This document shows positions 1,275 through 59,667 of a stretch of 64,000 bases of DNA, in pieces; within the stretch, counting starts at the first letter, position 1; every line of letters starts with the position of its first letter. Both the position numbers and the translations under genes were made by a program. A model generated the notes under the pieces. It made no database searches. It was not told the DNA's origin and saw nothing but the letters and a program-made list of their open reading frames with translations. Origin of the DNA: Minisyncoccota bacterium (GTDB lineage: Bacteria; Patescibacteriota; Minisyncoccia; Phycocordibacterales; UBA918); the NCBI GenBank assembly GCA_022841645.1, contig JALHRC010000005.1, positions 2,804 through 66,803 of the forward strand. The letters run 5' to 3'.

Positions 1275-3257
1275 TTACTCAACCATGGACAGCCAGTGGG
1301 CGTAGCCAAGCGCCGACATCTCGGCCTTAGGAATAAAACGTAGTGCCGCACCATTCATGCAGTACCGTTTACCACCGCGGTCGATCGGCCCATCATCAAA
1401 GACGTGCCCAAGGTGCGAGTCGGCGAACCGTGACCGCACCTCAGTGCGCACCGAAAACAACTTCCGATCTTCGTGGTGCGTCACCACTTCATCACTTAGC
1501 GGTCGTACAAACGACGGCCACCCCGTACCCGAATCAAACTTATCGCGCGAGGAGAATAGCGGTTCGCCAGATATCATGTCAACGTACAAACCGGGTTCAT
1601 AGTGTTGGTCAAGCGCGCTGGTACCAGCACGCTCTGTAGCATCTTCGCGCATCACCCGAAAGGCCACCTCAGAAAGTAATGTTCGCAACTCTTCGTCGAC
1701 TGGTCGTATATACGTCTCCCATGAAGAAGGGGTAAATTGGTTACGAGTAGCTGAATCCATAGTGGTGTTTGTTGCCAGATTGTCCGAATAAGTAAATTTT
1801 TTAAGGTCACTTCCCCACGTTGATTCTATGAAGGCTGTTCGACCGGAAGCACTGCGATACAAACTATATCGTAGTGGATTCTTTAGAGCGTAGTCTTGGT
1901 GGTAGTCTTCGGCTGGGTAGAACGGCGGTCGCGCTACTACTAGCAGCGGAAGCGGCGCTGGAAAAATCCCACGAGCGTCAACGGCTGCGATCACCGCCAG
2001 TGCCGCTCTCTGTTCCTCCTTTGTTTGATAATAAATAGCTGGAGCATACTCACTGCCACGGTCTTTAAACGAACCATGAGCGTCAGTCGGGTCACCATGC
2101 TTAATAATATGTTCCACCAGATTCGCGTAGGATACGATTGACGGGTCATACACCACCTGCACGACTTCGCGGTGACCGCCGTCATCGTAGTTCTTGTAAT
2201 CTGGATTTTCGGTAGTACCGCCAGCATATCCAGAGACAACATCAATGACCCCCGTCACCTTCGCTAGATCGTGCTCGACGCACCAGAAACAGCCGTTGCC
2301 AAACAAGGCGTTGGCAGTTTTAGTTGGTTGTGGTGGTGCGGGTGGGGTTACTGGTTCTCGAAGTACTGCAACTATTTGACTACCACTAGTCATCATCTGG
2401 TCATCCACTTCTTTAGCATCAAGGGTTGTGCTGGTAGCCTCTGTCAAATCTGTAGTCGCTAACGTCACTCCACTCTCAGCACTCATTGGTTGAGGTAGCG
2501 GAAGCGGTGAGGGGACCGATTCGGCTGGTGCAAACTGACGCAGGAGTTCTTCTTCAAATTGGATAGTGGCTCCATAGCCACTATCAAGAACGAACGACTC
2601 AAACTGCTTGTCCCAGCCCATCACCACCGCCACTCCAACACACAGCAGGAGTACGCCAAGGCCCTGGCGCACTCGCGCAGTAGTGGTAAGCCGTTTTAAG
2701 AGTACGTTGACAAACTGCTGACCAAAGTAAGCAATCAGAAAGAGAACAAGGACCAATCCCAACACAAATCCTCCCAAATACCACAACCCCAGCGCAAGTG
2801 ATGCTGGTAATACGGTCGCAATAATAAAGAGATAGGTTGGACTACAGGTCGAGAACACCGGACCAAGTGCCACCCCCATCAGCACATCCCCGCGCCAGCT
2901 GTTAGCCTGGTAGCCGCCACCGACTGCCCGATTGCTTAGCCGTGCTATCCGGCCCACAAGCGGCACTCTACCCCACCACGTCGGTACCAGAAGCGACAAA
3001 CCAAGGAGCGCAAGCACGCCTCCGGAAAACCACGTCCAAACGCTTGGCGGAATGGTAATCAGTAGCGTCGTCGCTCTAAGAAGGAGCGTAAAGACAATCA
3101 CCGATGCAGCGAGCACGAGAATCACTACCACTGACCGCCGTGAGAGATGGCGCGCTCCTGGCTCACTTGCACCGATCACGACCGGCAACAGCGGCAAAAT
3201 ACAGGGGGCCAGGACCGTGAGTGCCCCAGCCAAAACGGAGATAAGAAAGAAGGACAT
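1275..3257 (-). CDS. msrAB: Tri-domain fusion: CcdA/DsbD-type thiol-disulfide transporter TM domain - MsrA - MsrB (membrane-bound peptide methionine sulfoxide reductase A/B)
   Basis: The N-terminal six-TM region carries the CcdA motifs LAPCILPLLP and FSTCSPTY. A Pro-rich linker follows. The MsrA motif GCFWCVEH and the MsrB motifs GTGWPSF, HLGHVFDDGP and RYCMNGAALRF complete the 660-aa product. Confidence 0.85.
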   Translation of the reverse strand: MSFFLISVLAGALTVLAPCILPLLPVVIGASEPGARHLSRRSVVVILVLAASVIVFTLLLRATTLLITIPPSVWTWFSGGVLALLGLSLLVPTWWGRVPLVGRIARLSNRAVGGGYQANSWRGDVLMGVALGPVFSTCSPTYLFIIATVLPASLALGLWYLGGFVLGLVLVLFLIAYFGQQFVNVLLKRLTTTARVRQGLGVLLLCVGVAVVMGWDKQFESFVLDSGYGATIQFEEELLRQFAPAESVPSPLPLPQPMSAESGVTLATTDLTEATSTTLDAKEVDDQMMTSGSQIVAVLREPVTPPAPPQPTKTANALFGNGCFWCVEHDLAKVTGVIDVVSGYAGGTTENPDYKNYDDGGHREVVQVVYDPSIVSYANLVEHIIKHGDPTDAHGSFKDRGSEYAPAIYYQTKEEQRAALAVIAAVDARGIFPAPLPLLVVARPPFYPAEDYHQDYALKNPLRYSLYRSASGRTAFIESTWGSDLKKFTYSDNLATNTTMDSATRNQFTPSSWETYIRPVDEELRTLLSEVAFRVMREDATERAGTSALDQHYEPGLYVDMISGEPLFSSRDKFDSGTGWPSFVRPLSDEVVTHHEDRKLFSVRTEVRSRFADSHLGHVFDDGPIDRGGKRYCMNGAALRFIPKAEMSALGYAHWLSMVE

Positions 3258-9524: not shown

Positions 9525-9620
9525 ATGGGGTTGGAATGGCTCATTTTCGCTGGTGTGGTGGTGGTCGCGGTGGGCGGCTTCCTCTTCTGGCTCGTCGGTC
9601 GCTTGTTTTTCAGCGACTAA
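9525..9620 (+). CDS. Small single-TM peptide 6 of 6 (31 aa)
   Basis: An SD (AAGAGGGG) precedes the ATG. The TM segment is WLIFAGVVVVAVGGFLFWLVG. Confidence 0.4.
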   Translation: MGLEWLIFAGVVVVAVGGFLFWLVGRLFFSD

Positions 9621-9660
9621 TCGTCCGCGGGGCGGCTGGTAATGAACGAAACTTCGTTCA
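9617..9660. terminator. Long perfect hairpin (gcggctggtaatgaacgaa-ac-ttcgttcattaccagccgc), probably a bidirectional terminator
   Basis: A 19-bp perfect stem ends the small-protein operon and separates it from yqeY. Confidence 0.5.
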
Positions 9661-9681
9661 TTACCAGCCGCCCTTAAAGTT

Positions 9682-23175: not shown

Positions 23176-23192
23176 ATCCCATTCTACCACCG

Positions 23193-23228
23193 ACGTACAC
23201 CAATAAATACGTATTTATTGGTGTACGT
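23193..23228. promoter_or_regulatory. Operator/promoter module P2: a perfect 36-bp palindrome (acgtacaccaataaatacg|tatttattggtgtacgt), a TAGAAT box and the start codon
   Basis: It sits 17 nt upstream of the NudC-like ATG. Sequence identity with P1 extends through the -10-like box into the first codons (MA[N/K]R). Confidence 0.6.
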
Positions 23229-46480: not shown

Positions 46481-48874
46481 ATGAAGAAAAACACCCTCGT
46501 CATCGTCGAGTCGCCCTCAAAGGCTAAAACTATTGAAAAATACCTTGGCCCCGGCTATAAGGTGATGTCGTCGATTGGTCACGTCCGTGACCTCCCTAAA
46601 AGCAACACCGACGCAGTCGATACCGAGCATGGCTTTGTCCCTACGTATATTGTATCGCCCGGAAAGAATAAGGTGATTGCGGGACTACGTGCCGCGGCCA
46701 AAAGCGCTGACGAAGTGCTCCTGGCGTCCGACCCCGACCGCGAAGGAGAAGCGATCGCCTGGCATGTGGCAGAACTCATCAAAGACCAAAACGACAACTT
46801 AAAGCGCGTCGTCTTTCACGAAATTACAGAAGAGGCGGTAAAAAACGCCATCGCCCACCCGCGCGATCTTGATCTCAATCTCAAAGAAGCACAGGAAGCA
46901 CGGCGCGTACTCGATCGCCTGGTGGGCTACGACCTCTCGGGCCTCATCTGGAAAAAGGTGCGCTATGGCCTATCAGCCGGGCGGGTACAATCGCCAGCGC
47001 TGCGCATCGTGATGGAGCGCGAGCGACTAATTCGAGAGTTCATCCCCGAAGCGTTCTTTGTGCTGACCGCAGAGACACTCACGCCCCAAAAAACTCCTCT
47101 CACGCTTGTTTGTAGCGAGGAGCCCAAGGAGCGCAGTGAGGCCGAACGTATCGAACGAGTAGGTAAGAAGCACCCGTGGGCAGTGGCCGCCATTACCGAA
47201 AGCGAACAAGCTCGCCTGCCCCGCGCGCCCTTCACCACCTCTACCCTGCAGCAAACGGCGTCAACGCGTCTGGGCTTTTCGCCGTCACGCACCATGGGTG
47301 CGGCGCAGAAGCTCTACGAAGCTGGGCACATCACCTACATGCGTACCGACTCAACGACCCTCAGTGCCACCGCACAGAAGGATATGATTGCGCTCATTGC
47401 GAAAGAATTTGGAAAAGATTACGTCAGTCCCCGCCAGTACAAAACCAAAAGTAAGTCTGCTCAAGAAGCGCACGAGGCGATTCGACCCACCCGCGCCTTC
47501 ACCCGCAGTGCTGGTAGCACCGCCGACCAGAAGGCGCTGTATGAGCTCATTTGGGGGCGCGCTATCGCCTCGCAAATGCGGGAGGCCCGCACGCTGCGCA
47601 CTAAGGTAAGTGGCAATGTAACCGGGACGAGCGAAGCCATTCCCAACTTTGAAGTCCACGGTTCGCGCATTATCGACGAAGGCTGGCTCCGGGCCGACCC
47701 GCGCGCCCGCGGTGAGGAAGTGGAAGTACCCAAGCTAAAAGTCGGTGATCCCCTTTCCCTCACCGCACTTTCAATCGAAGACAAATTCACCCAGCCACCT
47801 AGTCGCTATACCGAAGCGGGTCTCATTAAAGAACTCGAGAAGCGCGGCATCGGGCGCCCCTCGACCTACGCTTCCATCATGAACACCATCACCGAGCGTG
47901 GCTATGTGGTGAAGGAGGGTCGTACCCTTATCCCGACCGCCACTGGTGACGTAGTCTCCACTTTCCTCGAGCAACATTTTGCCGACTACATTAGCGACAC
48001 CTTCACGAGTGAGATGGAAGACGAGCTCGATGAAATCGCTGAAGGCAAACGCACGTACGTGAAAACCTTGGAAGATTTTTATCGTCCGTTTCAGAAGGCC
48101 GTAGCAAGCAAGGAGTCGATTGAAAAACTCACCAACCTGGGGCCAGGACCAAAGAAGTTCCCCTGCCCTAAATGTGGGAGCACGATGGTGATAAAGCTCG
48201 GCAAGTCGGGCACCTTCCTTTCCTGCGACCGCTTCCCCGACTGCGATGGTGCCCGCCTTATTGACGGTAGCGAGGTCAAGCCCGAGGAACCGATTGGTCT
48301 CCATCCCGAGACCCAAGAGCCGATCTTCGTCATGAATGGTAAGTACGGTCCCTACCTACAGCTCGGCCTGACGCCTGAGAAAGTAAAAAAGGTGAAGGGC
48401 AAGAAAACTCCTAAAGTTGAGGCGGTTCCTCCACCGCGGCGCGCTGCTTTGCCGCCCAGTGTAGACCCCAGTACCGTCACGCTCGAACAAGCGATTATGT
48501 TCCTTAAGCTCCCGCGTACCCTTGGCGAACATCCCGACACGGGCGAACCAGTGGTGGCGAACACTGGCAAGTTTGGTCCTTACATCGCACATGCCGGCGA
48601 CTACCGTTCACTTAAAGGCGCCGACAACCCCTACGACATTACCTTTGAGCGCGCGCTAACGATTTTCAAGGAGCCAAAGAAAATGCGTAAGGGAGAAAAA
48701 CTTCTTAAAGAACTCGGGGTAAACCCCACCACCAAGAAAATGGTAAACGTTTTTGAATCAAAGTCTGGTCGCTACCTCAAAAAAGGCTTTCGCCGTATCA
48801 GCATCCCCGACGAAGTAAAGACTGAAGATATCACCATCGAACTTGCGATGTCACTCCTTAAGGGTGGGCGCTAA
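46481..48874 (+). CDS. topA: DNA topoisomerase I
   Basis: It has the TOPRIM motif (LVIVESPSKAKTI), the catalytic Tyr region (GHITYMRTDS) and C-terminal C4 zinc ribbons (CPKCGS..C..C). Confidence 0.9.
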   Translation: MKKNTLVIVESPSKAKTIEKYLGPGYKVMSSIGHVRDLPKSNTDAVDTEHGFVPTYIVSPGKNKVIAGLRAAAKSADEVLLASDPDREGEAIAWHVAELIKDQNDNLKRVVFHEITEEAVKNAIAHPRDLDLNLKEAQEARRVLDRLVGYDLSGLIWKKVRYGLSAGRVQSPALRIVMERERLIREFIPEAFFVLTAETLTPQKTPLTLVCSEEPKERSEAERIERVGKKHPWAVAAITESEQARLPRAPFTTSTLQQTASTRLGFSPSRTMGAAQKLYEAGHITYMRTDSTTLSATAQKDMIALIAKEFGKDYVSPRQYKTKSKSAQEAHEAIRPTRAFTRSAGSTADQKALYELIWGRAIASQMREARTLRTKVSGNVTGTSEAIPNFEVHGSRIIDEGWLRADPRARGEEVEVPKLKVGDPLSLTALSIEDKFTQPPSRYTEAGLIKELEKRGIGRPSTYASIMNTITERGYVVKEGRTLIPTATGDVVSTFLEQHFADYISDTFTSEMEDELDEIAEGKRTYVKTLEDFYRPFQKAVASKESIEKLTNLGPGPKKFPCPKCGSTMVIKLGKSGTFLSCDRFPDCDGARLIDGSEVKPEEPIGLHPETQEPIFVMNGKYGPYLQLGLTPEKVKKVKGKKTPKVEAVPPPRRAALPPSVDPSTVTLEQAIMFLKLPRTLGEHPDTGEPVVANTGKFGPYIAHAGDYRSLKGADNPYDITFERALTIFKEPKKMRKGEKLLKELGVNPTTKKMVNVFESKSGRYLKKGFRRISIPDEVKTEDITIELAMSLLKGGR

Positions 48875-48922
48875 GCATTTCATTACCTTGCCAAGCACAC
48901 TTACACTCACTAGAATGAGCAA

Positions 48923-50527
48923 ATGATAACCGCTAAGCAAATTATCGCGACGGTCAGTGCAGCCACCCCCACTGACGCAGAACTCATTGAACGAGCGTTT
49001 GCCTTTGCCGAAAAAGCCCACGAAGGGCACACCCGCTACTCGGGCGAGCCCTACATGAACCACGTAGCAGCGGTGGGCCTCAAGCTCGCTGAGATGGGTA
49101 TGGGACCACGCACCATCGCGGCCGGCCTCCTGCATGACACCGTTGAGGACACTCCAGTGACTTCGGAGGATATTAAGAGAGAATTTGGCGACGAAATCCT
49201 GTTTCTCGTTGAGGGGGTAACCAAACTTTCTTCGGTGCGTTACTACGGTAGCGACCGCCACAACGAGTCCCTACGAAAACTTTTCGTCGCAACGAGTCAG
49301 GACATCCGCGTCCTCATCATTAAGCTCGCGGACCGACTCCACAACATGCTCACCCTGGAGTATGTAAAGCCAGAGAAACAACTACGCATCGCGCGCGAGA
49401 CACTCGAGATATATGTACCCGTTGCCCACCGCCTTGGAATGGGTCGAATTCGCAAGGAGCTTGAGGACTTGGCCTTCCCCTACGTCTACCCCGATGAGCA
49501 CAAGCGCGTCGCGGCACTCCTCGAGCAAAAATTTGGCAGCAGCAACGAGGTGCTTGAGCGCGAACGCAAGGTACTGCAAAAGCGTCTGGCTGATGTAAAA
49601 CTGCTCGACTTTTCTACTTCTTTCCGCGTCAAGGGTCTCTACTCACTCTTCCATAAACTCAAGCGCAAAGAATGGGACATCAATACTGTCTACGATCTGC
49701 TCGCCATGCGGGTGATTGTTTCTTCGATGGAAGACTGCTATCGCACGCTCGGTATCGTCCACGAGCTGTGGCGACCCCTGCCCGGACGAGTAAAAGACTA
49801 CATTGCCTTCCCTAAACCAAATGGCTACCAATCGATTCACACCACCGTCACCACGCACAATGGTACGATTATGGAAATCCAGATCCGCACGCGCAAGATG
49901 CACCACGAAGCCGAGTTTGGTGTCGCTTCACATATTGCCTACAAGGCTCCGGCGGTAGAAGGCGCCAAAGCACCCGTCTCACCCTTCAGTACACTCTTAC
50001 CACTCCTCTTTCGACCTTTTTCGTGGCGACAAAGTGCCAGCGCGAAAATTGAGGAGAAGCGCGAGACTCCCCACCAGCAAAAAATTCCCTTGTGGATTTC
50101 AGAAATTGGGCAGATTTACCAGAAGGACAAGGCCCCGACGGCGCAGTTTATTGAGGATATTCGCAACGACTTTTTTAGTAACCGCATCTTCGTCTTTACC
50201 CCCACCGGCGACGTGGTTGATCTCCCGGTTGGTGCCACCCCTATCGACTTTGCTTATGCTATCCATTCAGAAGTAGGTAATCACACTTTTGGTTCGAAGG
50301 TAAATAAGAAACTTGTGCAACTTGATAGTGAACTAAAGAACGGTGACATTGTCGAAATTGAAACACGCAAATCTGCCGCCCCGACCAAGCGGTGGCTCGA
50401 TTTTGCCAAAACGTCGCTAGCGCGTCGCCGTATTCGCAACGCTCTCGGACTCGATAACGGTCCAACGCATGAAAACAAGAATCCTGAAGAAAAGCGCCGG
50501 CCGCCTAGACGCGCGGGGAAAAACTAG
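48923..50527 (+). CDS. Bifunctional (p)ppGpp synthetase/hydrolase (short Rel/SpoT homolog with HD, synthetase and TGS domains)
   Basis: It has an HD domain (HD..EDT), the synthetase motifs (RVKGLYSLFHKL, GYQSIHTTV) and a C-terminal TGS-like segment. Confidence 0.85.
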   Translation: MITAKQIIATVSAATPTDAELIERAFAFAEKAHEGHTRYSGEPYMNHVAAVGLKLAEMGMGPRTIAAGLLHDTVEDTPVTSEDIKREFGDEILFLVEGVTKLSSVRYYGSDRHNESLRKLFVATSQDIRVLIIKLADRLHNMLTLEYVKPEKQLRIARETLEIYVPVAHRLGMGRIRKELEDLAFPYVYPDEHKRVAALLEQKFGSSNEVLERERKVLQKRLADVKLLDFSTSFRVKGLYSLFHKLKRKEWDINTVYDLLAMRVIVSSMEDCYRTLGIVHELWRPLPGRVKDYIAFPKPNGYQSIHTTVTTHNGTIMEIQIRTRKMHHEAEFGVASHIAYKAPAVEGAKAPVSPFSTLLPLLFRPFSWRQSASAKIEEKRETPHQQKIPLWISEIGQIYQKDKAPTAQFIEDIRNDFFSNRIFVFTPTGDVVDLPVGATPIDFAYAIHSEVGNHTFGSKVNKKLVQLDSELKNGDIVEIETRKSAAPTKRWLDFAKTSLARRRIRNALGLDNGPTHENKNPEEKRRPPRRAGKN

Positions 50528-51681
50528 ACGCCAAAATTTTTGATTGAGTAGAGATCGCTCTCGTCAATTTCCGGTTCTGATTCGGTAAGCGTAGTTTCGG
50601 GTGGTACTTCCATAACCGCTTCGCTCTCGTGTTCATACAGTGCACCGAGAGATTCACTGTGCGCAACGTCGGGTGGCAAGGCTGTCGCGGCAGGCAGAGC
50701 GCCTGAAGCTTCAGCGGAAATCACTAGTGGCGTGGCCGCAGTCAAGGCAGCTGCACCTCCGGTTGCGCTGGCCGCTTCGTGGCTACGCACCCGCTCGAGC
50801 ATGCTTTCGAGGTCGGCAATGGAGAAATAGTCGATAGTCAGTCGGCCCCCAAAATCAGTACGCTGGATCTTTACCCGCGTCCCCAGGCTGTCCATAAACT
50901 TCTTTTCCATGTCCATCAGATCAGCCTCCTGCTCAAGGTAGTCCTTCTTGCGCACTTTCTCGGTAGCAATACTGCGCGCAATCCGCTCCACCTCGCGCAC
51001 CGACAGCTTCTTTAGCAAAATCTCTTTAAAGAGCACTTCTTGCTCCTCTGGTCTATCAGACAGCATGAGGAGTGTACGCGCATGTCCCTCACTGAGTTTC
51101 CCGAGCTGTAATGCCTCAAGCACGGCCGGTGGAAGTGCCAGTAGGCGAATAGTGTTGGAGACATACTCGCGGCTGCGACCGACTTTTTCAGCCACCTGCG
51201 TGTGCGAGAGGCCAAAGACATTGGACAGCTGTTGAAACGCCATGGCGCGGTCCACCGCATTAAGATCCTCGCGCTGCAGGTTCTCGATAATGGCGAGTTC
51301 AAGTTTTTCTTGTTCTGTCTGTTCACCTTCACGAATAATGACCGGTACCAGGGTGAGCCCCGCGATCTTCGACGCACGTAAACGCCGCTCACCGGCGATC
51401 AATTCGTACTCTGAGTAGAAGGTGCCGTCTTCACGACTGCGCTCGTGCCGTGTCACCGTAAGTGGCTGCAGAATGCCGTACATACGCACTGAATCAGCCA
51501 GTTCTTTGAGCTTCTGCTCATCAAACTCCCGCCGCGGCTGAAACGGATTGGGAACAATTTTCTCTACTTCTACCCAGTAGATGGAGTCGCCATGAAATGC
51601 CATAGGAAAATACGCCGGATTACCTCCGCACCACCCGGTGCGAATTTCTGCCATTTTATCACGCCCCATGAGGCCAGGCAC
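50524..51681 (-). CDS. parB: ParB/Spo0J-like chromosome partitioning protein with an extended acidic C-terminus
   Basis: It has the ParB box (GERRLRA) and an HTH (LSHTQVAEKVGRSREYVSNTIRLL). Confidence 0.8.
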   Translation of the reverse strand: MPGLMGRDKMAEIRTGWCGGNPAYFPMAFHGDSIYWVEVEKIVPNPFQPRREFDEQKLKELADSVRMYGILQPLTVTRHERSREDGTFYSEYELIAGERRLRASKIAGLTLVPVIIREGEQTEQEKLELAIIENLQREDLNAVDRAMAFQQLSNVFGLSHTQVAEKVGRSREYVSNTIRLLALPPAVLEALQLGKLSEGHARTLLMLSDRPEEQEVLFKEILLKKLSVREVERIARSIATEKVRKKDYLEQEADLMDMEKKFMDSLGTRVKIQRTDFGGRLTIDYFSIADLESMLERVRSHEAASATGGAAALTAATPLVISAEASGALPAATALPPDVAHSESLGALYEHESEAVMEVPPETTLTESEPEIDESDLYSIKNFGV

Positions 51682-51743
51682 ACTGTTTATAACTGGGCGT
51701 TTTTCTGCTAGACTCTGTGGGATCTAGGGATTGTTTGTAGTAT

Positions 51744-51826
51744 GCCGCGGTGGCGGAATGGTAGACGCTGCGGACTCAAAATCCGTTTCCTTCACCGGAG
51801 TGAGGGTTCAAGTCCCTCCCGCGGCA
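51744..51826 (+). tRNA. tRNA-Leu (anticodon CAA)
   Basis: It has a 7-bp acceptor GCCGCGG/CCGCGGC with discriminator A, anticodon loop CUCAAAA, a long variable arm and TpsiC TTCAAGT. Confidence 0.85.
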
Positions 51827-51960
51827 CACTGCACGTAATGTTTATGGATCCGTTTTTTACAATGAGCTCAATCATGCTTGACTTGTTTATATTATCAGAG
51901 TTGCCTTAGGAGACGATAATCTTCCACGACGGAAAGTCTATTTAGGATACACTCCGCGCC

Positions 51961-52875
51961 ATGCCGAAACCAACACTCATCGCTATCGTCGGCCCTACCG
52001 CCTCGGGCAAAAGTGCACTTGCAGTCGAGCTAGCCCTTGAGCTGGGTGGCGAGGTGATTTCTGTGGATTCACGGCAGGTGTATCGTGGCATGGACATTGG
52101 CACTGGCAAGATTACCCAGGCAGAGATGCGCGGCATTCCCCACCACCTGTTTGATCTTGTCGATCCGGTAAATGACACGTACACCGCCACCGACTTTGAG
52201 CGCGACGCCAACGCTGCTATCAGTGATATTCTTGCGCGCGGTAAACAGCCGATTCTCTGTGGTGGCACTTTCTTTTACCTCGACGTTTTGCGTGGACGCA
52301 TGTCACCAGCTCCTGTCCCTCCGAACCCGCAACTTCGTGCACAGTTAGAGGCACTTTCCCTTTCTGAACTAGAAGTGCGACTGACACAACTCGACCCCGA
52401 ACGGGCGGCCACCATCGACAGCGAAAACCCCCGTCGCCTGATTCGGTCTATCGAAATCGCTACCGCCCTTGGTCATGTGCCAAAGGCTACGCCGGTGGAA
52501 TCACCATACGACTGGCACAGTATCGGCATTGATGTACCGCCAGCGACTTTGCGCCAGCGGATTAGTGAACGACTCGACGAACGATTAGCAGCGGGCATGG
52601 TTGATGAGGTGGTGAAGCTCCACGACGATGGAGTGTCGTGGGATCGGCTCGTATCGTTTGGCCTCGAGTACCGCTACATTGCCGAACATCTACAAGGCAA
52701 GCTTTCATACGGCAACATGCGCACCCAGCTTTTTTTCGCAATTTGTGGGTACGCCAAACGCCAGCGCACGTGGCTCCGCCGCGACCCGAACATACGGTGG
52801 TATCCGTTTCCGGTTGACGTACAAACGGTACTCAAGGAACTTTCTAACTACAATTCCCCAGAACCCTTCGGTTAA
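51961..52875 (+). CDS. miaA: tRNA dimethylallyltransferase
   Basis: It has the P-loop IAIVGPTASGKS and MiaA motifs (DSRQVYRGMDIGTGK). Two perfect palindromes follow (52860-52885, 52896-52917). Confidence 0.9.
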   Translation: MPKPTLIAIVGPTASGKSALAVELALELGGEVISVDSRQVYRGMDIGTGKITQAEMRGIPHHLFDLVDPVNDTYTATDFERDANAAISDILARGKQPILCGGTFFYLDVLRGRMSPAPVPPNPQLRAQLEALSLSELEVRLTQLDPERAATIDSENPRRLIRSIEIATALGHVPKATPVESPYDWHSIGIDVPPATLRQRISERLDERLAAGMVDEVVKLHDDGVSWDRLVSFGLEYRYIAEHLQGKLSYGNMRTQLFFAICGYAKRQRTWLRRDPNIRWYPFPVDVQTVLKELSNYNSPEPFG

Positions 52876-52946
52876 CCGAAGGGTTCGCACTCTTAGTTCA
52901 GCCCGTTAGTACGATCGATCGTACTAAGTGCGCCTGCCTCTTTTTT

Positions 52947-53017
52947 AAAATTCTGTTCTCGAAAACCGATCAATGTGGTAAGATGGCCCGCATCACGGGC
53001 CTATAGTTTAGTGGTAA
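52947..53017 (+). repeat. 71-nt duplicate of the tRNA-Trp promoter region plus the first 21 nt of tRNA-Trp (identical to 53184..53254)
   Basis: There is exact 71/71 identity. The copy stops in the D-loop and is followed by unrelated sequence. Confidence 0.7.
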
Positions 53018-53030
53018 GAAGCTAGTCGCT

Positions 53031-53180
53031 TCTTCCTTTCTGCGCTCACTCGGAAATCCAAACCTCATCGGCTTGGACTTCGCTCGTTTCGCTTGAAGAA
53101 AGCCTCCGGCAGGTCTTCCTTTCTGCGCTCACTCGGAAATCCAAACCTCATCGGCTTGGACTTCGCTCGTTTCGCTTGAA
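53031..53180 (+). repeat. Tandem direct repeat: two identical 67-nt units (53031-53097 and 53114-53180) separated by 16 nt
   Basis: The unit is tcttcctttctgcgctcactcggaaatccaaacctcatcggcttggacttcgctcgtttcgcttgaa, seen twice. Confidence 0.7.
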
Positions 53181-53233
53181 AGTAAAATTCTGTTCTCGAA
53201 AACCGATCAATGTGGTAAGATGGCCCGCATCAC

Positions 53234-53304
53234 GGGCCTATAGTTTAGTGGTAAAATTCTGGTCTCCAAAACCAGCGTCCTCCGTTCGAGTCGGAGTGGG
53301 CCCG
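53234..53304 (+). tRNA. tRNA-Trp (anticodon CCA)
   Basis: It has acceptor GGGCCUA/UGGGCCC with discriminator G, anticodon loop CUCCAAA and TpsiC TTCGAGT. A TGn-TAAGAT promoter-like sequence lies upstream. Confidence 0.85.
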
Positions 53305-53580
53305 CAGTCATATACAAAAAGTTAAGCACGGCACTTGCTTTGATCAGTTTTTATTTCGCCTGCCCTCACGGTATTTCGGTCAAAACCTTTCCCTAATCGA
53401 CCTTTTTCCAAGTGATGGCGAACATACAACCCCTTTAACTAGTTGGTGGAGCGCAATGCCAATGAGCACTACGGCTGTCAGCATCGGGGCCTTCCCAGGT
53501 ACACATAGTATTGGGCGATACACGATAACCAGTAAACCCCCCAAAACTCCGTAACCGCTCGTAGGCAGTTTGCCCTGTTC

Positions 53581-54318
53581 TCATCCAGTCATAAAAACAG
53601 GGCTATTACGTGAACTCAAATCAAGCGCTTGCCCTCCCCCGTGAGCACCCACACCGGTTGGATTACCTGGCGTGCGCACACCACTCGATACTTGTACGCC
53701 GCAAGATTGCTGCATCGCAATTTGACATTCTCTCGCCAATCGGGCAATTTCTTCAAGGCGAGCCGTCGATACTCCCGCTAGCTGCACTCCAGGCTGCACA
53801 ATTACTCCGGCCGCCGTAAGAATGCGCTGTGCATCAGCTGCGGTCGCCGGGTCAGGTGCTTGGCCAGGAAAACGTGGCGCTATCGCCGCACCTTGCGGCG
53901 ACTCTGGCCGATTAACATCGGGCACGGTTTGCGCAAAACACTCAATACGACTCCACGGCAATGGTCCACCTTGCATACCCTGCACTCCCAAACCCCGGAT
54001 CAACGTATCAACAGCAATCCAGGCACCTAAAATAATGAGCAGCCCAATGAACGCACTTACAAAACTTTCCTTTGCATCTTTTAGAGCGCTAGGGTTGCCA
54101 GCAGACGTCACCAGTTTGAAACCAGCTATGACAGCCAGCACCCCAAACCCGACTAAAAGTACTCCAATGAGCCAATCAATAATTGTGTTTGCCATCATCA
54201 CAAAGTCGCACGCACTGCACGTGGCTCCACTACAGGGTACAAAACCTTGTGCCTGAGTAAGATTGGGAATAAATACAAGGACAACTAGTAACTTTGTCGC
54301 TAACCACAATCGAAGCAT
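53581..54318 (-). CDS. Pilin-like protein with VirB2/TrbC-like topology (signal peptide, CxxC, two-helix hydrophobic hairpin) plus a C-terminal soluble domain
   Basis: Its N-terminal 95 residues are paralogous to 54909..55832 (LVP.C.G..C..C, DWL, AGFKL[VL]TS[AG]GNP, second hydrophobic helix). Confidence 0.4.
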   Translation of the reverse strand: MLRLWLATKLLVVLVFIPNLTQAQGFVPCSGATCSACDFVMMANTIIDWLIGVLLVGFGVLAVIAGFKLVTSAGNPSALKDAKESFVSAFIGLLIILGAWIAVDTLIRGLGVQGMQGGPLPWSRIECFAQTVPDVNRPESPQGAAIAPRFPGQAPDPATAADAQRILTAAGVIVQPGVQLAGVSTARLEEIARLARECQIAMQQSCGVQVSSGVRTPGNPTGVGAHGGGQALDLSSRNSPVFMTG

Positions 54319-54323
54319 AAAAT

Positions 54324-54887
54324 TTATTCAACGAGAGTAACTGCACTGGGACAAAAGCTGAGACCCACGTTTTGACCACCATAAAGCTCACTTGCATTGT
54401 TGGGTACAACAACACTCACCCGTAGCGTACATAGCTCACTGGTACCTAGTTTAACAAGACTTATTAGCCGATTTTCTGCTTCGCGTCGGTAAAACGAAAG
54501 GGGCTTCTGCCAAAGACTGATGGTGAAGCTTGTATCAAAATCGCTATACGTTATGGTATAGGGAGGTAATGGCAAACTTGGATCTAACGTTCCTGCCAAG
54601 TAATAAAATCCTTCATTATTTACGTCCGGTTCTACCCCTGCGTCTTCTCGAAAGTCGGTAAGTAAAATTTCAGTGTTGTCATTTCTGGTAATCGTAAGTG
54701 GGGTTCTAACTGAGGATGTTGCATTCGGCAGATTCTGTTGGTTGTCGGGTGGGAAGATGGTCACTGGCAGCACTGGCTGCTCATATACCTCGCCCTCATC
54801 AACACCAACGACCAGAATCTGCCCCAACACAAACATGGTCAGGATGAGAACTGCAGTCGCAATAGTTAAAAGAAATGTTTTTTTCAT
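54324..54887 (-). CDS. Hypothetical secreted or membrane-anchored protein (187 aa)
   Basis: It has an N-terminal signal anchor and sits between the two pilin-like paralogs. Confidence 0.4.
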   Translation of the reverse strand: MKKTFLLTIATAVLILTMFVLGQILVVGVDEGEVYEQPVLPVTIFPPDNQQNLPNATSSVRTPLTITRNDNTEILLTDFREDAGVEPDVNNEGFYYLAGTLDPSLPLPPYTITYSDFDTSFTISLWQKPLSFYRREAENRLISLVKLGTSELCTLRVSVVVPNNASELYGGQNVGLSFCPSAVTLVE

Positions 54888-54908
54888 AACTAGTTAATTT
54901 AAGTGATA

Positions 54909-55832
54909 TTAACGACACCCATTACGAGGATTAGTATATGCGCCCCAATGATTAAACCCTTGTCGTGTGCGCAACAAATCTTGCGCTACAGCAGTGTTGC
55001 AATCAATATTTTGGGCTGCCCGTACACATTGGACATATAAATCTCGATTGAGAATGACGGCGTCGTAATTTCTGCCCCGAAAAGCACTCGTGCAATCGAG
55101 ATTTCGCCCACCGTTAAGACGCGTGCAAGCTGGTTGATTTAAATTATGAACAGTAAGGTTGACTTGATACAGACCAACCGAAAATGAATCACCGGAAGCA
55201 CGTAATCGATCGGTTGAACTAAGCGCACCAGGCATGCATGCACTTTCACCCCGAATAATGCATGACATTGTTTCAGCTGCCGCGCCCCAAGTGCCACGAA
55301 GAGCATCTGGTGAGCAGGCGCCGCTAGCTAAACGTGTTGGATCAATTAAATTGCTCGAGCTAGCATTTGTAGGAGAAAGTCCACCCTGGAGATCTGGCTG
55401 CGCCACACACTGAATCTGATTCCAGGTACCGTATATTTGTCCAGTAACCAGCGCCTTAAGCAAGGTATCAATAAGTAGCCAAGCCGCCAAAAGAACTAAA
55501 AAACCAATTGCTACGTCGTAAAAGCGTTGTTTAGCCCAGCTCCTTGCCTCAGGGTTACCGCCAGATGTAAGTAGCTTAAAGCCCGCCATCATAAAGATAA
55601 GGGCGGCAACCATTGCGAGAATAAGTACCAGCCAGTCGACAACATTGTTGATGAGCAGTACTAAATGACAGAACTGGCAGGGATTTGCTATTCCACCACA
55701 CTGTGGCACGAGCCCCGCTGCCATAGTGGTGTCTGGCGTAAATAAAAATACCGTCGCCAGAACGACGCCAAGCCCCGCCGCCAAAAACCAACGTCTCATT
55801 ACGCCCATGGTACCATGGCGCCTCACTTCCAA
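54909..55832 (-). CDS. Pilin-like (VirB2/TrbC-like N-terminus) protein with a Cys-rich C-terminal domain bearing lytic-transglycosylase-like motifs
   Basis: Its N-terminus is paralogous to 53581..54318. The C-terminal domain has ES (RGESACMPG), GLYQ (SVGLYQVN) and AYT (NHWGAYTNP) motifs reminiscent of the SLT family, plus 12 Cys. The start could instead be at the internal MGVMRR. Confidence 0.4.
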   Translation of the reverse strand: MEVRRHGTMGVMRRWFLAAGLGVVLATVFLFTPDTTMAAGLVPQCGGIANPCQFCHLVLLINNVVDWLVLILAMVAALIFMMAGFKLLTSGGNPEARSWAKQRFYDVAIGFLVLLAAWLLIDTLLKALVTGQIYGTWNQIQCVAQPDLQGGLSPTNASSSNLIDPTRLASGACSPDALRGTWGAAAETMSCIIRGESACMPGALSSTDRLRASGDSFSVGLYQVNLTVHNLNQPACTRLNGGRNLDCTSAFRGRNYDAVILNRDLYVQCVRAAQNIDCNTAVAQDLLRTRQGFNHWGAYTNPRNGCR

Positions 55833-55888
55833 AATATCTGCCTGTGTGCTACCTTGTACGGGCTTTTATAGCACGAAGAAGAGTAGTT

Positions 55889-55936
55889 GCGCCGGTGGTG
55901 GAGTGGATGAAAAGTGAAGCGTTTCACTTTTCATCC
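55889..55936 (+). repeat. 18-nt fragment matching the tRNA-Tyr 5' end (gcgccggtggtggagtgg) fused to a perfect 14-bp hairpin
   Basis: It matches the acceptor/D-arm of tRNA-Tyr (17/18). The hairpin is ggatgaaaagtgaa-gcg-ttcacttttcatcc. Confidence 0.5.
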
Positions 55937-56061
55937 AGTCTTCCGCTAGTGCGGAAGAAGGGTCGTTGTGAGTACATGCGGAGCTTGCACGAACAGACCC
56001 TAGGAGGAATCGCGGACGAACGCCCATAGAAATCAAAGCGTTCCAATTAAAATCTATATTA

Positions 56062-56098
56062 CGTCGGTGGTGGAGTGGTCAATCACAACAGACTGTAA
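56062..56098 (+). repeat. 37-nt exact duplicate of the 5' half of tRNA-Tyr (through the anticodon), followed by a hairpin-rich 150-nt insert
   Basis: It is identical to 56252..56288. Serial perfect hairpins follow downstream (atgtgtcttc/gaagacacat, gtcgc/gcgac, aaatct/agattt). Confidence 0.65.
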
Positions 56099-56250
56099 GA
56101 CTGACGCTTCGCGCACCAGGCAGTCTTTCTGGCAGATGTGTCTTCCACCGAAGACACATTAAAAAGTCGCTATAGCGACACACCAGTAAATCTTACAGAT
56201 TTCCAGTCTAGATAGATTACGAAAAACATTTGAGTTACAATTGCATATCT

Positions 56251-56333
56251 GCGTCGGTGGTGGAGTGGTCAATCACAACAGACTGTAAATCTGTCGGCTT
56301 CGGCCTACGAAGGTTCGAATCCTTCCCGGCGCA
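56251..56333 (+). tRNA. tRNA-Tyr (anticodon GUA)
   Basis: It has acceptor GCGUCGG/CCGGCGC with discriminator A, anticodon loop CUGUAAA, a long variable arm and TpsiC TTCGAAT. Two terminator hairpins follow. Confidence 0.85.
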
Positions 56334-56455
56334 CAGGTCGTGAAAAACTTGACGTTTTTCCTCAGAAAGCTCTTGTATATCAAGGGCTTTTTTGGTGCCG
56401 AACCTACCTAGACTATCGCCAAGCTTCTTATAAACATTTTGAAAGCCGATTAGTT

Positions 56456-56854
56456 ATGTTTTGCACTAACTGCGGAAACAAAATCGACATAAATGAAAAG
56501 TTTTGCACAAATTGTGGACTTGAAGGTTTGGGCATTAACAACAAAAACCCACAAACTGCTCGAGAAACAGCTATCAGCGTAAAGAAAGATGAAAAATTGT
56601 ATCACAGATTAGGTGTGGTAATTTATGTGATAGCCCACCTTCCATTACTTGTTATTGTTCCTGTGGTTTGGTCAGAAAATGCAAGGTACTACAGTAGCTA
56701 CACTAAAACATACTCCGGCTCTGATTTTGAAGCGTTTTTGTATTCAGTCTTAACTATTATTATTTGCCTCTTAGTGCTTCGTCTGATTAAAATGGCGACT
56801 AAATATATTGTGATAGGTATAAAGCCCAAGATGCGAGATTTGATATTTTTCTAA
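56456..56854 (+). CDS. Zinc-ribbon domain membrane protein (132 aa)
   Basis: It has an N-terminal CTNCG-x10-CTNCG zinc ribbon and two TM helices. Confidence 0.5.
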   Translation: MFCTNCGNKIDINEKFCTNCGLEGLGINNKNPQTARETAISVKKDEKLYHRLGVVIYVIAHLPLLVIVPVVWSENARYYSSYTKTYSGSDFEAFLYSVLTIIICLLVLRLIKMATKYIVIGIKPKMRDLIFF

Positions 56855-56884
56855 AAAGAACCAACCAAGTACAACAACACTAGG

Positions 56885-57214
56885 ATGGCAACTTTTAAAG
56901 TCACACAGGAAGCAAAAGAACTTTTTGACAAGCTTGTCGCGGAAGGGATTTTTGCTGAACTAGAATACTGGGACGGGTACAAACACGTCGATATACACAT
57001 CCCATTAGCAAAACTTTACATTGAAGTCGATGGAGCCCAACACTTCACAAATCCCAACCAAATAGCCAGTGATTTTCTCAGAGACCACTACTCAGACAAT
57101 AGTGGCTACGACACCTTCAGAATTCCAAACCAAATAGTTAGAGATAAAATGAATACTGTAGTAAAAGCTATTTTAAAGATTGTTTCTGAACGATCTCACC
57201 ATCAGATTTTGTAA
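56885..57214 (+). CDS. DUF559 endonuclease-domain protein (Vsr/restriction-endonuclease-like fold)
   Basis: It has the VDIHIP..KLYIEVDGAQHF motif characteristic of DUF559. Confidence 0.55.
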   Translation: MATFKVTQEAKELFDKLVAEGIFAELEYWDGYKHVDIHIPLAKLYIEVDGAQHFTNPNQIASDFLRDHYSDNSGYDTFRIPNQIVRDKMNTVVKAILKIVSERSHHQIL

Positions 57215-57334
57215 AGGCAAGATACAAACCAGAAAGACTTTCTAAATCCAATTGAGCTTGAGAGTCAGAAATCGCAACCTTATACTGTCTAAACATGTAA
57301 TCTTGATATTTTGTTACTAATTTTACAGTAAACC

Positions 57335-58315
57335 TCATACAATTTTGGTGTCTGGTGACTCAAAAAGATCAGGATGTGTCAAAACTTTAGTCCCAATTTT
57401 TGAACATATTACTTTTTTTTGCGCGCAAGCTACACGCAAAGAAAGTATTGGCTTACCTGTGATTTTTGACACTTCTGATAAAGACAATAATTTTTTTATA
57501 TCATTAAATCTATTACAAATAACCACATCAAGTGCTATTGCTAGACTCTTATTAATAATCTCTTCTAGTTGCAAGGGTGGCTTTACAAACGGATCTTTGA
57601 AATTGTTTTTGATAATCGTTTGAACTATTGGATCGGCATGTTCGAGCGCATCTATATATTCTTTTCTGTCTTTTTCGCTACCCTTTATAGCAATGTTTGG
57701 ATAACCGTGCGCAACTAAAATAAAATTCATCAAGATTCTACCGACACGCCCATTACCATCAGGAAAAGGGTGAATTTGCTCAAACATATCGTGGACTATT
57801 GCAAGCTTTCTCACCAAATAATCCGTAGGCGTAGGCGTATTAGCAACCTCAATAAGCCCTTCAATATGACGCTCAATTTCAAAAGGTGATGAAGTTTTGA
57901 CCTTCGCACCTGTAATCTCTATGTCTCCCTTTCGCCATTCTCCAGGTGTGTAAGAAAAATTTGGGTCTCCTCTAAACATCAAAGAGTGAATTTGACGAAT
58001 AATTGCTTTAGACAATTTAAACTCTTTTGTCTGGAATTGCTGAAAAGCTAATTCGTACGCCGCAAATGCGGCATCAAAATAACCAAGTACTCGATACTCA
58101 GTTTTTGAGTATTTTGGATTATCAATAATATCAATAATATCTGTTCGACTGACAAAATACCCTTCTATCATTAATGAGTTTCTTGTATCCTCTTTAAGAA
58201 GATCCATCCACTCTTTATTTCGAACAGAAACACCACTCAACCCTCCCACATGAAAAAACCACTCAAATCTAAGATTTGCAGTTGAATTTGGTATGATTCT
58301 TCGTTTTATTGTCAT
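57335..58315 (-). CDS. Fic family protein (AMPylator-type motif HPFPDGNGRVGR)
   Basis: It has the canonical Fic motif HPFx[DE]GNGRxxR at HPFPDGNGRVGRIL. An extremely AT-rich multi-TATAAT upstream region spans 58316-58520. Confidence 0.75.
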   Translation of the reverse strand: MTIKRRIIPNSTANLRFEWFFHVGGLSGVSVRNKEWMDLLKEDTRNSLMIEGYFVSRTDIIDIIDNPKYSKTEYRVLGYFDAAFAAYELAFQQFQTKEFKLSKAIIRQIHSLMFRGDPNFSYTPGEWRKGDIEITGAKVKTSSPFEIERHIEGLIEVANTPTPTDYLVRKLAIVHDMFEQIHPFPDGNGRVGRILMNFILVAHGYPNIAIKGSEKDRKEYIDALEHADPIVQTIIKNNFKDPFVKPPLQLEEIINKSLAIALDVVICNRFNDIKKLLSLSEVSKITGKPILSLRVACAQKKVICSKIGTKVLTHPDLFESPDTKIV

Positions 58316-58537
58316 GTAAATTTTCTATTTACTAAGCAAGATCTAATACTTTTATTTACAAAGCATTATTTTAAGCCCTCTTTACTCAATGTTGATATAA
58401 TATCATATAATACTAAACTCGCAATAATCTATTATAATATAGTTTATATGGCTTAAAATATAAGTATATTACAAAAGTATAATAATCTCTTATTTTATCA
58501 TAATTATACATTTATATTTGAATATTACCCCACACAA

Positions 58538-58561
58538 AAGTGTCGAACCAACTCCAGCTCG
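58538..58561 (+). repeat. 24-nt direct repeat R1 (aagtgtcgaaccaactccagctcg) at the 3' flank of the rhuM-doc gene
   Basis: It is 23/24 identical to R2 at 59581..59604. Confidence 0.6.
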
Positions 58562-58573
58562 GCGCACAGAAAA

Positions 58574-59554
58574 CTACCGCAACATTTGTGTTACAAGCGC
58601 TACCATCTGCTCTTTCTTCTTTGGATCACTTTCGGCTATCAAAAGCGTAAGGGCAGTGAGTGCTGCTGGATTAATATTCTTTGCTCCTTTCACTCCCACC
58701 TTACGTAAGAACCACACAAAGGCAAACGCTCCTGAGCGCTTGTTGCCATCAGAAAATGGATGGTTCTTTACCATAAAGTAGAGCAGGTGTGCCGCTTTTT
58801 CCTCGACAGTTGGGTACACCGACTTACCACCAAATGACTGCATGACGTTACCGACGATACCTTCAATATTTCCTTCTCGCCGCTCGCTAGCAAACAAATC
58901 AGTGGCCTCCCCTTTCTTTATAAGTTCGCGCTTTAGTTCACTGATTACCAAGAGTAAATCACCTCCAACAAGCGCGACCTTCTTTTTAGTTACCCCCTTT
59001 AGTTCAAGGGTCTCCTTATCATACGCATCAAGGGAAACCCAGGTACCAGCAAATTCTTTTATTAGCTCAAGGACGGCTTTGGGGTCAAGGGTAACCTGAT
59101 CAGGTAACAAAGCTTGTACATCCGACACCGCTTTCATAAAAGCATCGTAATTTTGTGCAACTCGTTTTCGGTTTACGGTATACCCTTTGGTGACATGTTC
59201 ACGCAGAGTCTTAGTAGCCCACTGTCGAAAAGTAGTGGCTTTTTTGCTATTTACTCGATAACCAACAGAAAGAATCATATCGAGGCTGTAGTGATTTACT
59301 TCGCGCTCAATCTGACGCTTTCCTTCAAGCTGAAGTATCCGGAATTTCCGGATAGTTGCTTTTTCGACCAACTCTTCCGTCTTATAGATATTCTTAATGT
59401 GCTCGTTAATAGTTCGCACATCTACATCAAAAGCTAGGGCGATCTGTACTTGTGTTGCCCACACTGTTTCCATTTCCGAATCGCCCCGCAACTCCAAAGC
59501 ACCAGACTTAGTCTGGTAAATTACCATTTTTTGTTCCGACTTTTTCTTAGCCAT
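58574..59554 (-). CDS. RhuM-family N-terminal domain fused to a Doc-type Fic domain (HPFSDGNKR)
   Basis: It has a RhuM-like N-terminus (KMVIYQTKSGALELRGD..VWATQ..IA) and a Doc-type motif HPFSDGNKRSGAFAF. Confidence 0.7.
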   Translation of the reverse strand: MAKKKSEQKMVIYQTKSGALELRGDSEMETVWATQVQIALAFDVDVRTINEHIKNIYKTEELVEKATIRKFRILQLEGKRQIEREVNHYSLDMILSVGYRVNSKKATTFRQWATKTLREHVTKGYTVNRKRVAQNYDAFMKAVSDVQALLPDQVTLDPKAVLELIKEFAGTWVSLDAYDKETLELKGVTKKKVALVGGDLLLVISELKRELIKKGEATDLFASERREGNIEGIVGNVMQSFGGKSVYPTVEEKAAHLLYFMVKNHPFSDGNKRSGAFAFVWFLRKVGVKGAKNINPAALTALTLLIAESDPKKKEQMVALVTQMLR

Positions 59555-59580
59555 ATTAAGTGCATTTTAACATGAAGCAG

Positions 59581-59604
59581 AAGTGTCGAACCATCTCCAG
59601 CTCG
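59581..59604 (+). repeat. 24-nt direct repeat R2 (aagtgtcgaaccatctccagctcg) at the 5' flank of the rhuM-doc gene
   Basis: It is 23/24 identical to R1 and lies 26 nt upstream of the start codon. Confidence 0.6.
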
Positions 59605-59667
59605 TCACCACTTACGATCACTGCAAGCTCTACCAATCATACCTAAAATCATTGCTATACTGGACCT

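Follow-up and report, generated by a model that had tools for sequence, protein, structure and literature searches.

Nested 5′ gene fragments, short hairpin-rich inserts and a conserved RNA-like element at a tRNA-Tyr gene of a Patescibacteria genome

Organization of the tRNA-Tyr locus

The window analysed here is a 64,000-nucleotide (nt) stretch of DNA from a Minisyncoccota bacterium (contig JALHRC010000005.1 of assembly GCA_022841645.1, positions 2,804 to 66,803 of the forward strand), and the subject of this study is its tRNA-Tyr gene together with the DNA directly upstream. The intact gene, with a GTA anticodon, was located on the plus strand at 56251-56334 by ARAGORN and Rfam, the 3′ end being 56334 in the former and 56333 in the latter. 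Two partial copies of the 5′ end of this gene precede it in a nested arrangement, as had been pointed out in a first-pass annotation and was confirmed by a repeat search. Each copy is followed by an insert of the same layout, a structured domain and then an AT-rich spacer, and all of these features are read on the plus strand.

The outer fragment (55889-55906) matches tRNA-Tyr positions 1-18 at 17 of 18 nt, with T4 changed to C, and the repeat search aligned 20 nt (55887-55906) at 90% identity. It forms the 5′ end of the conserved element described below, and runs into a perfect 14-base-pair (bp) hairpin (55905-55918/55923-55936), whose closing G-G is tRNA positions 17-18; the annotation had described the hairpin correctly, but the fragment is a near copy and not an exact one. 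The junction is thereby placed in the D-loop, after G18. The inner fragment (56061-56106) has A instead of G at tRNA position 1, is identical to positions 2-38 at 56062-56098, which is the 37-nt copy reported previously, and continues at 93% identity to 56106, the last 8 nt being of lower identity. Its junction, at 37/38, is in the anticodon loop. Perfect matches to the core 14-mer CGGTGGTGGAGTGG number three, and when up to two mismatches were allowed, 6 matches were found versus 0.39 expected.

Between the outer element and the inner fragment lies spacer 1 (56009-56060), which is not conserved, has an AT-rich 3′ end finishing in TATATT (56055-56060), and is identical in the Logan unitigs L009 and L010. 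The inner insert comprises 152 nt (56099-56250) and folds far better than shuffled sequences (z = -4.0), in agreement with its earlier description as hairpin-rich. Its structured domain (E2, 56099-56207) has the closing stem GACUG/CAGUC and contains hairpins of 11 bp (56135-56160) and 5 bp (56166-56179) as well as the hairpin AAAUCU-UAC-AGAUUU. The complementarity of cttacag to ctgtaag noted in the annotation is real, and belongs to a 15-nt segment (56195-56209) that repeats the anticodon arm (56280-56294) in inverted orientation at 14 of 15 nt; the insert holds both direct and inverted pieces of this arm. The following AT-rich spacer 2 (56208-56250) has the sequence TACAAT at 56236-56241, 9 nt before tRNA position +1; spacer 2 may be a replacement promoter with TACAAT as a -10-like box, and a scan with consensus promoters found nothing in it. 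No homologue of the inner insert was detected in the window, in the relatives described below, or in phage or plasmid records, which also answers the annotation's proposal that the insert be sought elsewhere. The expected junction of an allele empty for this insert passes from 56060 directly into the full tRNA, …TATATT-GCGTCGG…CTGTAAATCTG.

The annotation had called for validation at the level of reads, for which Logan unitigs of runs SRR28154518-31 (k = 31 de Bruijn graph) were used. Unitigs were 100% identical to the window at 47876-52975, 53225-56091 and 56275-58555, and ended exactly 30 nt inside the repeats at tRNA-Tyr and at tRNA-Trp (52975 and 53225 for the latter), as they should, because a graph of k = 31 must branch there if each repeat has two contexts. 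As far as testable on these unitig-covered flanks, with the interior of the inner insert lying outside them, the nested arrangement is not an assembly artefact.

A conserved three-hairpin element upstream of tRNA-Tyr

For comparison, metagenomes were scanned with the 5′ half of tRNA-Tyr, and 62 loci of relatives were obtained (here given L numbers), all with a full-length gene and an identical 5′ half. In six of them (L092, L099, L106, L109, L118 and L119) the same 18 nt occurs 120-190 nt upstream of tRNA-Tyr and is followed by a common layout, namely a long AT-rich perfect hairpin (P1), a second hairpin (P2) of the form TCTACGAGC…GCGAGTAGA, a third (P3) with the conserved inner motif GTGAGCGAAAGCGAAC, and a single-stranded tail AAAGGAGGA; pieces of the tRNA, positions 20-27 or 20-34, often come after the element. 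In the window, this element (the UE scaffold, 55905-56008, approximately 104 nt) consists of P1 at 55905-55918/55923-55936, P2 at 55939-55946/55951-55958, P3 at 55960-55964/55996-56000 with the inner hairpin within it, and the tail TAGGAGGA at 56001-56008.

A covariance model built from the six copies, R1, recovered two further ones, in L136 and L123. The window scored 80.9 bits (E = 4e-15), and L109, L106, L119, L092, L118, L099, L136 and L123 scored 72-108 bits. The matches were confined to the upstream side of tRNA-Tyr and to the tRNA strand, and nothing comparable turned up in the remainder of the window or of approximately 660 kb of related DNA; a weak match at 9580-9666 of the window proved to be an ordinary terminator hairpin. 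When eight sequences were aligned, 97.3% of the cells paired and 15 of the 32 pairs showed compensatory changes, a level reached by none of 500 shuffles, with slid controls at 33-45%; the covariation result was the same on an unfitted MAFFT alignment. In addition, G·U pairs occupied 10 cells versus 1 cell for A·C, indicating that the structure is selected on the tRNA strand and pointing to RNA. The element thus has the compensatory changes above controls and the strand-specific G·U pairs that are generally expected of a conserved structured RNA. An alternative fold, in which the 18-nt fragment pairs with the P2 region, was dropped, since P2 itself shows compensatory changes.

Copies of the element are 56-82% identical to each other. 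Because they can be aligned at all, when neighbouring proteins are only 31-56% identical (54-56% for MiaA and 31-47% for the adjacent pilin), the outer element is not a neutral scar. The annotation had taken the outer fragment as the passive remnant of an integration; the recurrence of a covarying three-hairpin element in distant relatives, which the annotation itself had named as an observation that would speak against its view, contradicts this. We regard the outer element, on comparative sequence grounds, as a conserved folded RNA-like element and not as a decaying integration scar, and infer that it would function as RNA. Rfam 15 (gathering score or E <= 1) returned only tRNAs for the window and 13 relatives, besides a chance miRNA match on a hairpin. 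Small open reading frames (ORFs) following the AGGAGGA tail were not conserved, and the tail had neither a conserved ORF nor a pairing partner. The gap between element and tRNA is just 11 nt in L109, where the sole promoter-like site is upstream of the fragment; transcription of this tRNA should therefore pass through the element. Across the loci the distance from element to tRNA varies from 11 to about 80 nt.

Filled and empty alleles

The distribution of the element was then considered by acceptor type. It is present in 8 of 32 loci of the GCGTCGG type, plus two diverged copies in L093 and L094, and in none of the 25 loci with other acceptor types. Filled and empty alleles stand behind the same promoter and leader, as would be predicted from gain or loss of inserted DNA. 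The clearest pair is L011, a plain tRNA-Tyr gene without the element, and L119, which shares with it the promoter and a 45-nt leader and has 190 nt more, which consist of the element, a spacer and positions 1-18 once again. The empty L138 relates in the same manner to the filled L109 and L118, and L106 is also filled. In the filled alleles the native promoter stands ahead of the fragment. The scaffold follows G18 in most loci and G10 in L136 and L123, both junctions reading GTGG^T, and in L136 tRNA positions 12-21 come after the scaffold. The leader of L011 resembles a decayed, older copy of positions 1-25, which suggests repeated rounds.

The explanation that we tentatively prefer, and which is quite possible without being probable, is that small protein-less cassettes with structured RNA repeatedly insert into tRNA loops, that the gene is regained through a replacement end brought with the cassette, and that the RNA of the outer family is made from the captured promoter. 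The same element can also be explained as a vertically inherited, cis-acting leader RNA, which serves the processing, stability or expression of tRNA-Tyr, arose once from a duplicated copy and was lost often, with the fragments as by-products. The strong covariation, the strand-specific G·U pairs, the fixed position and orientation with one copy per genome, the long conservation despite divergent neighbours, the conserved single-stranded AAAGGAGGA tail, and the co-transcription that would be obligatory in L109 are all consistent with such a leader. Nevertheless, the element is missing from 22 of the 32 comparable loci, including some with the same promoter, and is therefore dispensable; the scaffold occurs at two positions within the fragment, the distance to the tRNA is variable, and the tail lacks a conserved ORF or partner. 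Unrelated inserts with the same layout, at this locus and at other tRNA genes, also argue against a leader RNA, which we consider unlikely, though a serious alternative to insertion by cassettes.

A parallel duplication at tRNA-Trp

The annotation had drawn a parallel to tRNA-Trp, which is real. Upstream of and overlapping this gene (53234-53305), a direct repeat with an insert spans 52946-53253 on the plus strand; the two repeat copies (52946-53016 and 53183-53253) are identical over 71 nt, which comprise 50 nt of upstream sequence and tRNA positions 1-21, and the junction is in the D-loop. Within the 166-nt insert between them, 67 nt are repeated exactly in tandem; this insert shows no significant structure (z = -0.75) and has no homologue in any relative, phage or plasmid record. 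Together with the inner tRNA-Tyr fragment and its 152-nt insert, this duplication is lineage-specific, and both events are recent because their repeats are exact.

For these two events, errors of local replication or repair should be considered, in which slippage, tandem duplication or fold-back synthesis after a break produced the inner tRNA-Tyr fragment and the tRNA-Trp duplication from DNA already present. The exactness of the repeats is in accordance with this, as are the native upstream sequence in the tRNA-Trp repeat and the tandem duplication in its insert, the direct and inverted anticodon-arm pieces in the inner tRNA-Tyr insert, and the GIY-YIG and other nuclease-like ORFs that adjoin tRNA-Tyr in relatives; furthermore, the 22-nt start of the tRNA-Trp repeat, 91% like the anticodon arm, offers microhomology. 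However, the greater part of both inserts (152 nt and 166 nt) has no match elsewhere in the window, indicating that they were not copied from nearby DNA. Such errors may account for the two recent events, but they leave the conserved outer element unexplained, and we judge this explanation improbable.

Two further observations were made at tRNA-Trp. The identity of 91% mentioned above is between the first 22 nt of each repeat copy (52946-52967 and 53183-53204) and positions 18-40 of tRNA-Trp, in the D-stem and anticodon arm. The sequence GGCCCGCA from the 3′ end of tRNA-Trp occurs again just before the gene, and the region taken as its 'promoter' looks like an older, decayed 3′ part of tRNA-Trp.

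Fragment-plus-insert modules at other tRNA genes

A search within 700 nt of tRNA genes for exact tRNA fragments (12 nt or longer) found them in relatives at tRNA-Leu, Cys, Lys, Trp and Thr, and at none of 14 tRNAs in loci from outside the Candidate Phyla Radiation (CPR). These modules flank the tRNA genes on both the 5′ and 3′ sides, and the inserts, of which there are dozens, are all 100-210 nt in length with intact fragment boundaries. At tRNA-Tyr itself, approximately 20 of the 62 loci (L092, L112, L115, L131, L135, L145, L147-L150, L011 and others) carry a mirror-image module 115-210 nt downstream, in several subtypes. There, the gene and a terminator are followed by the tRNA 3′ end in inverted orientation, with a hairpin interrupting it, then by G·A-rich motifs that are conserved (GCCGGAGCG…CGCGAGGC and GAGCGAAGCGA), and lastly by a direct copy of the segment from the T-loop to the 3′ end, after which the original flank resumes. 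A hairpin with a CTGTAAG loop terminates one of the subtypes. Empty (L106) and filled (L011) alleles are found here as well, and Thr, Lys, Trp and Leu genes have similar 3′ modules, whose ends match the respective tRNA. The 3′ modules had no Rfam match. Homology between the 5′ and 3′ modules was not established, as R1 matched the 3′ modules weakly (17-26 bits) and mostly at the terminator hairpin.

Half of a gene may also be exchanged. In L094 (about 2275-2425 in oriented coordinates), tRNA-Trp is chimeric: its T-arm and the 3′ strand of its acceptor are unlike those of relatives, and the acceptor stem has two G·U pairs; behind a 45-nt hairpin lies a displaced 3′ half with 95% identity to the tRNA-Trp of the window. 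This looks, from sequence comparison, like replacement of half the gene by foreign DNA. In L141, a tRNA-Tyr gene near the contig end (about 3130-3215, oriented) combines the 5′ acceptor strand GCGTAGG of one allele type with the 3′ end …CCGCTCCCA of another; its acceptor stem would not pair, and the gene is either a recombinant or a pseudogene.

Nuclease-like genes are found beside some of these tRNA genes. Small GIY-YIG ORFs of approximately 80 amino acids (aa) adjoin tRNA-Tyr in L016 (2557-2793), L152 (4492-4698), L137 (1425-1628) and L130 (3712-3941). In L016, the ORF is located between a 14-nt 5′ fragment, which has a small D-loop hairpin insert, and the intact tRNA-Tyr; this was the only relative with an endonuclease ORF between fragment and gene, and none was found in that position in the window. 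In the L122 group of four loci, a 260-aa ORF resembling a zinc-ribbon nuclease is located at -810 to -27 of tRNA-Tyr; downstream of the gene, three to four loci have a LAGLIDADG-like ORF (L142, 2038-2695, oriented).

Insertion of cassettes as the preferred explanation

If small cassettes insert into tRNA loops, as we prefer to assume, the tRNA-Tyr locus would have undergone at least two rounds of one process. In each, a short cassette of a hairpin-rich domain of approximately 100 nt and an AT-rich spacer of approximately 45-55 nt would enter a loop in the 5′ part of the gene; since the inserted DNA would end with a fresh copy of the tRNA 5′ end, an intact gene would be regenerated just downstream, and the old 5′ end would be left stranded upstream. 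The older round would have taken place in the D-loop after G18, with a cassette of the three-hairpin RNA family that is under structural selection on the tRNA strand. The original promoter of the tRNA gene would drive its RNA, which would form the 5′ leader of the pre-tRNA and begin with tRNA positions 1-18. The younger round would have taken place at 37/38 in the anticodon loop. We infer that such cassettes are mobile, that they insert site-specifically with an enzyme supplied in trans or through recombination after DNA uptake, and that their spacers would provide a replacement promoter.

Several results weigh against this explanation. Pfam scans were carried out on 30 of the 68 window ORFs of at least 90 aa and detected no integrase, recombinase, transposase, reverse transcriptase, GIY-YIG or homing endonuclease. 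Viral contigs gave no match to the tRNA 5′ half, the P2 motif or the fragment/P1 junction, and BLAST of 55880-56260 against phages and plasmids found nothing. There is no signature of a dispersed repeat, because each locus has one copy of the element and none occurs elsewhere in the approximately 660 kb. Loss by way of the 18-nt direct repeats could explain every empty allele, and the difference between G10 and G18 could come from small deletions between GTGG repeats. Finally, the inner tRNA-Tyr insert and the tRNA-Trp insert have no relatives, and both cassettes and products of local repair could account for them.

The annotation had proposed repeated site-specific integration and excision at the 5′ half of tRNA genes. 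This proposal is supported in part. Insertion is plausible from the loop junctions and from the filled and empty alleles, but no integrase, recombinase or transposase was found in the 30 window ORFs scanned or among the conserved neighbours in relatives, and the empty alleles, instead of the proposed excision, could equally reflect deletion between direct repeats. Clustering of neighbouring genes in the 62 relatives revealed no recurrent recombinase, the conserved neighbours being a pilin, ClpB, EF-Ts, S2, MiaA and MsrA. The inserts of 152-172 nt contain no ORF of at least 40 aa that matches a family, and no dispersed copies of the three inserts were found in the window.

A related possibility is that these are scars of large integrative elements, that is, of prophages or islands that entered tRNA genes by a tyrosine integrase and were later deleted almost wholly, leaving remnants next to the attachment (att) sites. 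Direct repeats of a tRNA segment surround the inserts and their junctions lie in loops, which is the classical att signature, and filled and empty alleles exist, the empty sites in relatives being seen solely at the outer element. The tRNA-Trp 3′ half that is displaced in L094, of a different allele and 45 nt behind a chimeric gene, and the low-GC island with Fic, RhuM and DUF559 genes that adjoins the 3′ end of tRNA-Tyr in the window would also fit. Against such scars, no integrase or recombinase was found in or beside the inserts among the 30 window ORFs scanned, and instead of a displaced 3′ fragment with the 3′ part newly supplied, both fragments are 5′ parts. It is the 5′ end that is duplicated, and an element-borne attP would lack the 50 nt of native upstream DNA found in the tRNA-Trp repeat. 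Random deletion would not give inserts that are uniformly 100-210 nt with intact boundaries in relatives, the outer insert is under structural selection, and the island is not bounded by a 3′-end repeat. Large-element scars are, accordingly, quite improbable in our estimation.

Comparison with known systems

A literature search found nothing describing this arrangement. Restoration of a gene through duplication of its end is already known, from integrative elements on the 3′ side and from homing-endonuclease genes of organelles; unusual here are the 5′ polarity, the D-loop junctions, the absence of an ORF, a three-hairpin RNA outside Rfam, and the occurrence throughout the clade on both sides of tRNA genes.

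In the accepted picture, elements of kilobase size with an integrase replace the 3′ end of a tRNA gene, and Williams reportedly set out in 2002 a scheme of sublocations for tyrosine-integrase att sites in tRNA genes. The present modules share with these elements the direct repeats of tRNA segments around an insert, the restored gene, junctions at stem-loops (the anticodon loop, and the T-loop for the 3′ modules of relatives), and filled and empty alleles. They differ in that the inserts are 150-210 nt, encode no protein and have no integrase nearby, in that junctions are found in the D-loop, and in that the outer insert is a folded RNA. Because the restored part is the 5′ end here, a promoter must be supplied. 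Background and examples of integrative elements that target tRNA genes, and of their att sites, are available (PMC9897764).

The free-standing homing endonuclease genes of fungal mitochondria likewise invade an essential gene, carry a duplicated gene end and leave a pseudogene fragment, and the GIY-YIG arrangement of L016 is comparable, whereas the cassettes of the window are without any ORF. SegB of phage T4 is a free-standing homing endonuclease gene within a tRNA cluster. Small mobile elements with hairpins are also known, such as repetitive extragenic palindromes and bacterial interspersed mosaic elements (REP/BIME), miniature inverted-repeat transposable elements (MITEs) including Correia and RUP, and the double-hairpin elements of mitochondria. 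These are similarly non-coding, approximately 100 nt in size and formed of stable hairpins; in contrast, the present inserts lack terminal inverted repeats, a target duplication of fixed short length and multiple copies, and are tied to one tRNA gene. A MITE or insertion sequence was rejected as the inserts are unique in the window, with a single copy per locus and duplications of 18, 37 and 71 nt.

Mobile elements with RNAs that join a guide to a scaffold include IscB and TnpB with their omega RNA or reRNA, and IS110 with its bridge RNA. By analogy, the outer element may be compared with them for its 5′ segment of 10-18 nt identical to the target, the multi-hairpin scaffold that follows and the captured promoter; unlike them, it has no nuclease or recombinase gene and a much shorter scaffold, and the 'guide' would also match the restored gene. 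Group I introns in the anticodon loops of bacterial tRNAs are, again, structured RNAs in a tRNA loop, but here the interrupted copy has no 3′ exon, Rfam gives no match, and an insert of 104-152 nt is too small. A group I intron was rejected since no 3′ half follows either fragment and RF00028 did not match. A T-box leader was rejected as well, because RF00230 did not match, the downstream gene is a tRNA, and the UAC triloop of the inner insert is part of the inverted copy of the anticodon arm.

In its widest form, insertion by cassettes would mean that Paceibacteria carry an undescribed class of protein-less, RNA-structured cassettes, which invade the D-, anticodon- and T-loops of tRNA genes, bring a replacement 5′ or 3′ end, and take over the promoter or terminator for their own RNA. 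The 10-20 nt of tRNA sequence at the start or end of this RNA could be a guide or recognition handle for an enzyme acting in trans, and the outer element would be the 5′ member of the class at tRNA-Tyr. This generalization is conceivable, though on the unlikely side. Should the cassettes prove mobile, they would represent a minimal type of element that invades an essential gene without a protein of its own and without loss of the gene's function; should the element be a leader RNA, Patescibacteria would have a new cis-element of tRNA expression. The tRNA genes, classic landing sites of mobile DNA, are here flanked on either side by modules of 100-200 nt. In practical terms, fragments of this sort complicate the annotation of tRNAs, and short-read assemblies break precisely where they occur.

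Genomic setting and neighbouring sequences

The window encodes ParB, MiaA, a RelA/SpoT-like protein, DprA, RmuC and two proteins of the type IV secretion system (T4SS) pilin type. Its MiaA is at most 54-56% identical to that of any GTDB species representative, and the best matches are from Candidatus Kaiserbacteria and metagenome-assembled genomes of Paceibacterota, indicating a Patescibacteria (CPR) genome without a close sequenced relative. Several of these relatives keep the same gene order, tRNA-Leu(CAA) – miaA – tRNA-Trp – … – tRNA-Tyr. The lineage has a reduced genome and is probably naturally competent, DprA being encoded in the window.

At 23179-23196 on the minus strand, with a terminator hairpin on one side and an ORF start on the other, the sequence ACGTCGGTGGTAGAATGG resembles the 5′ end of tRNA-Tyr. 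It has A at position 1, as does the inner fragment, and its 13-mer CGTCGGTGGTAGA is found unchanged in the diverged upstream elements of L093 and L094. This sequence may represent an orphan third fragment at a distance of 33 kb, or a chance match.

Genes in a low-GC island directly 3′ of tRNA-Tyr (56340-59650, 38-41% versus approximately 52%) specify a membrane protein with a zinc ribbon, a DUF559 endonuclease-like protein, and proteins of the Fic and RhuM-Fic types. An integrase is absent from the island, and no repeat of the tRNA 3′ end is present at its far side or anywhere in the window. L093, L094 and L118 contain homologues of the DUF559 gene and of the first 100-120 nt or so after tRNA-Tyr, at a different spacing.

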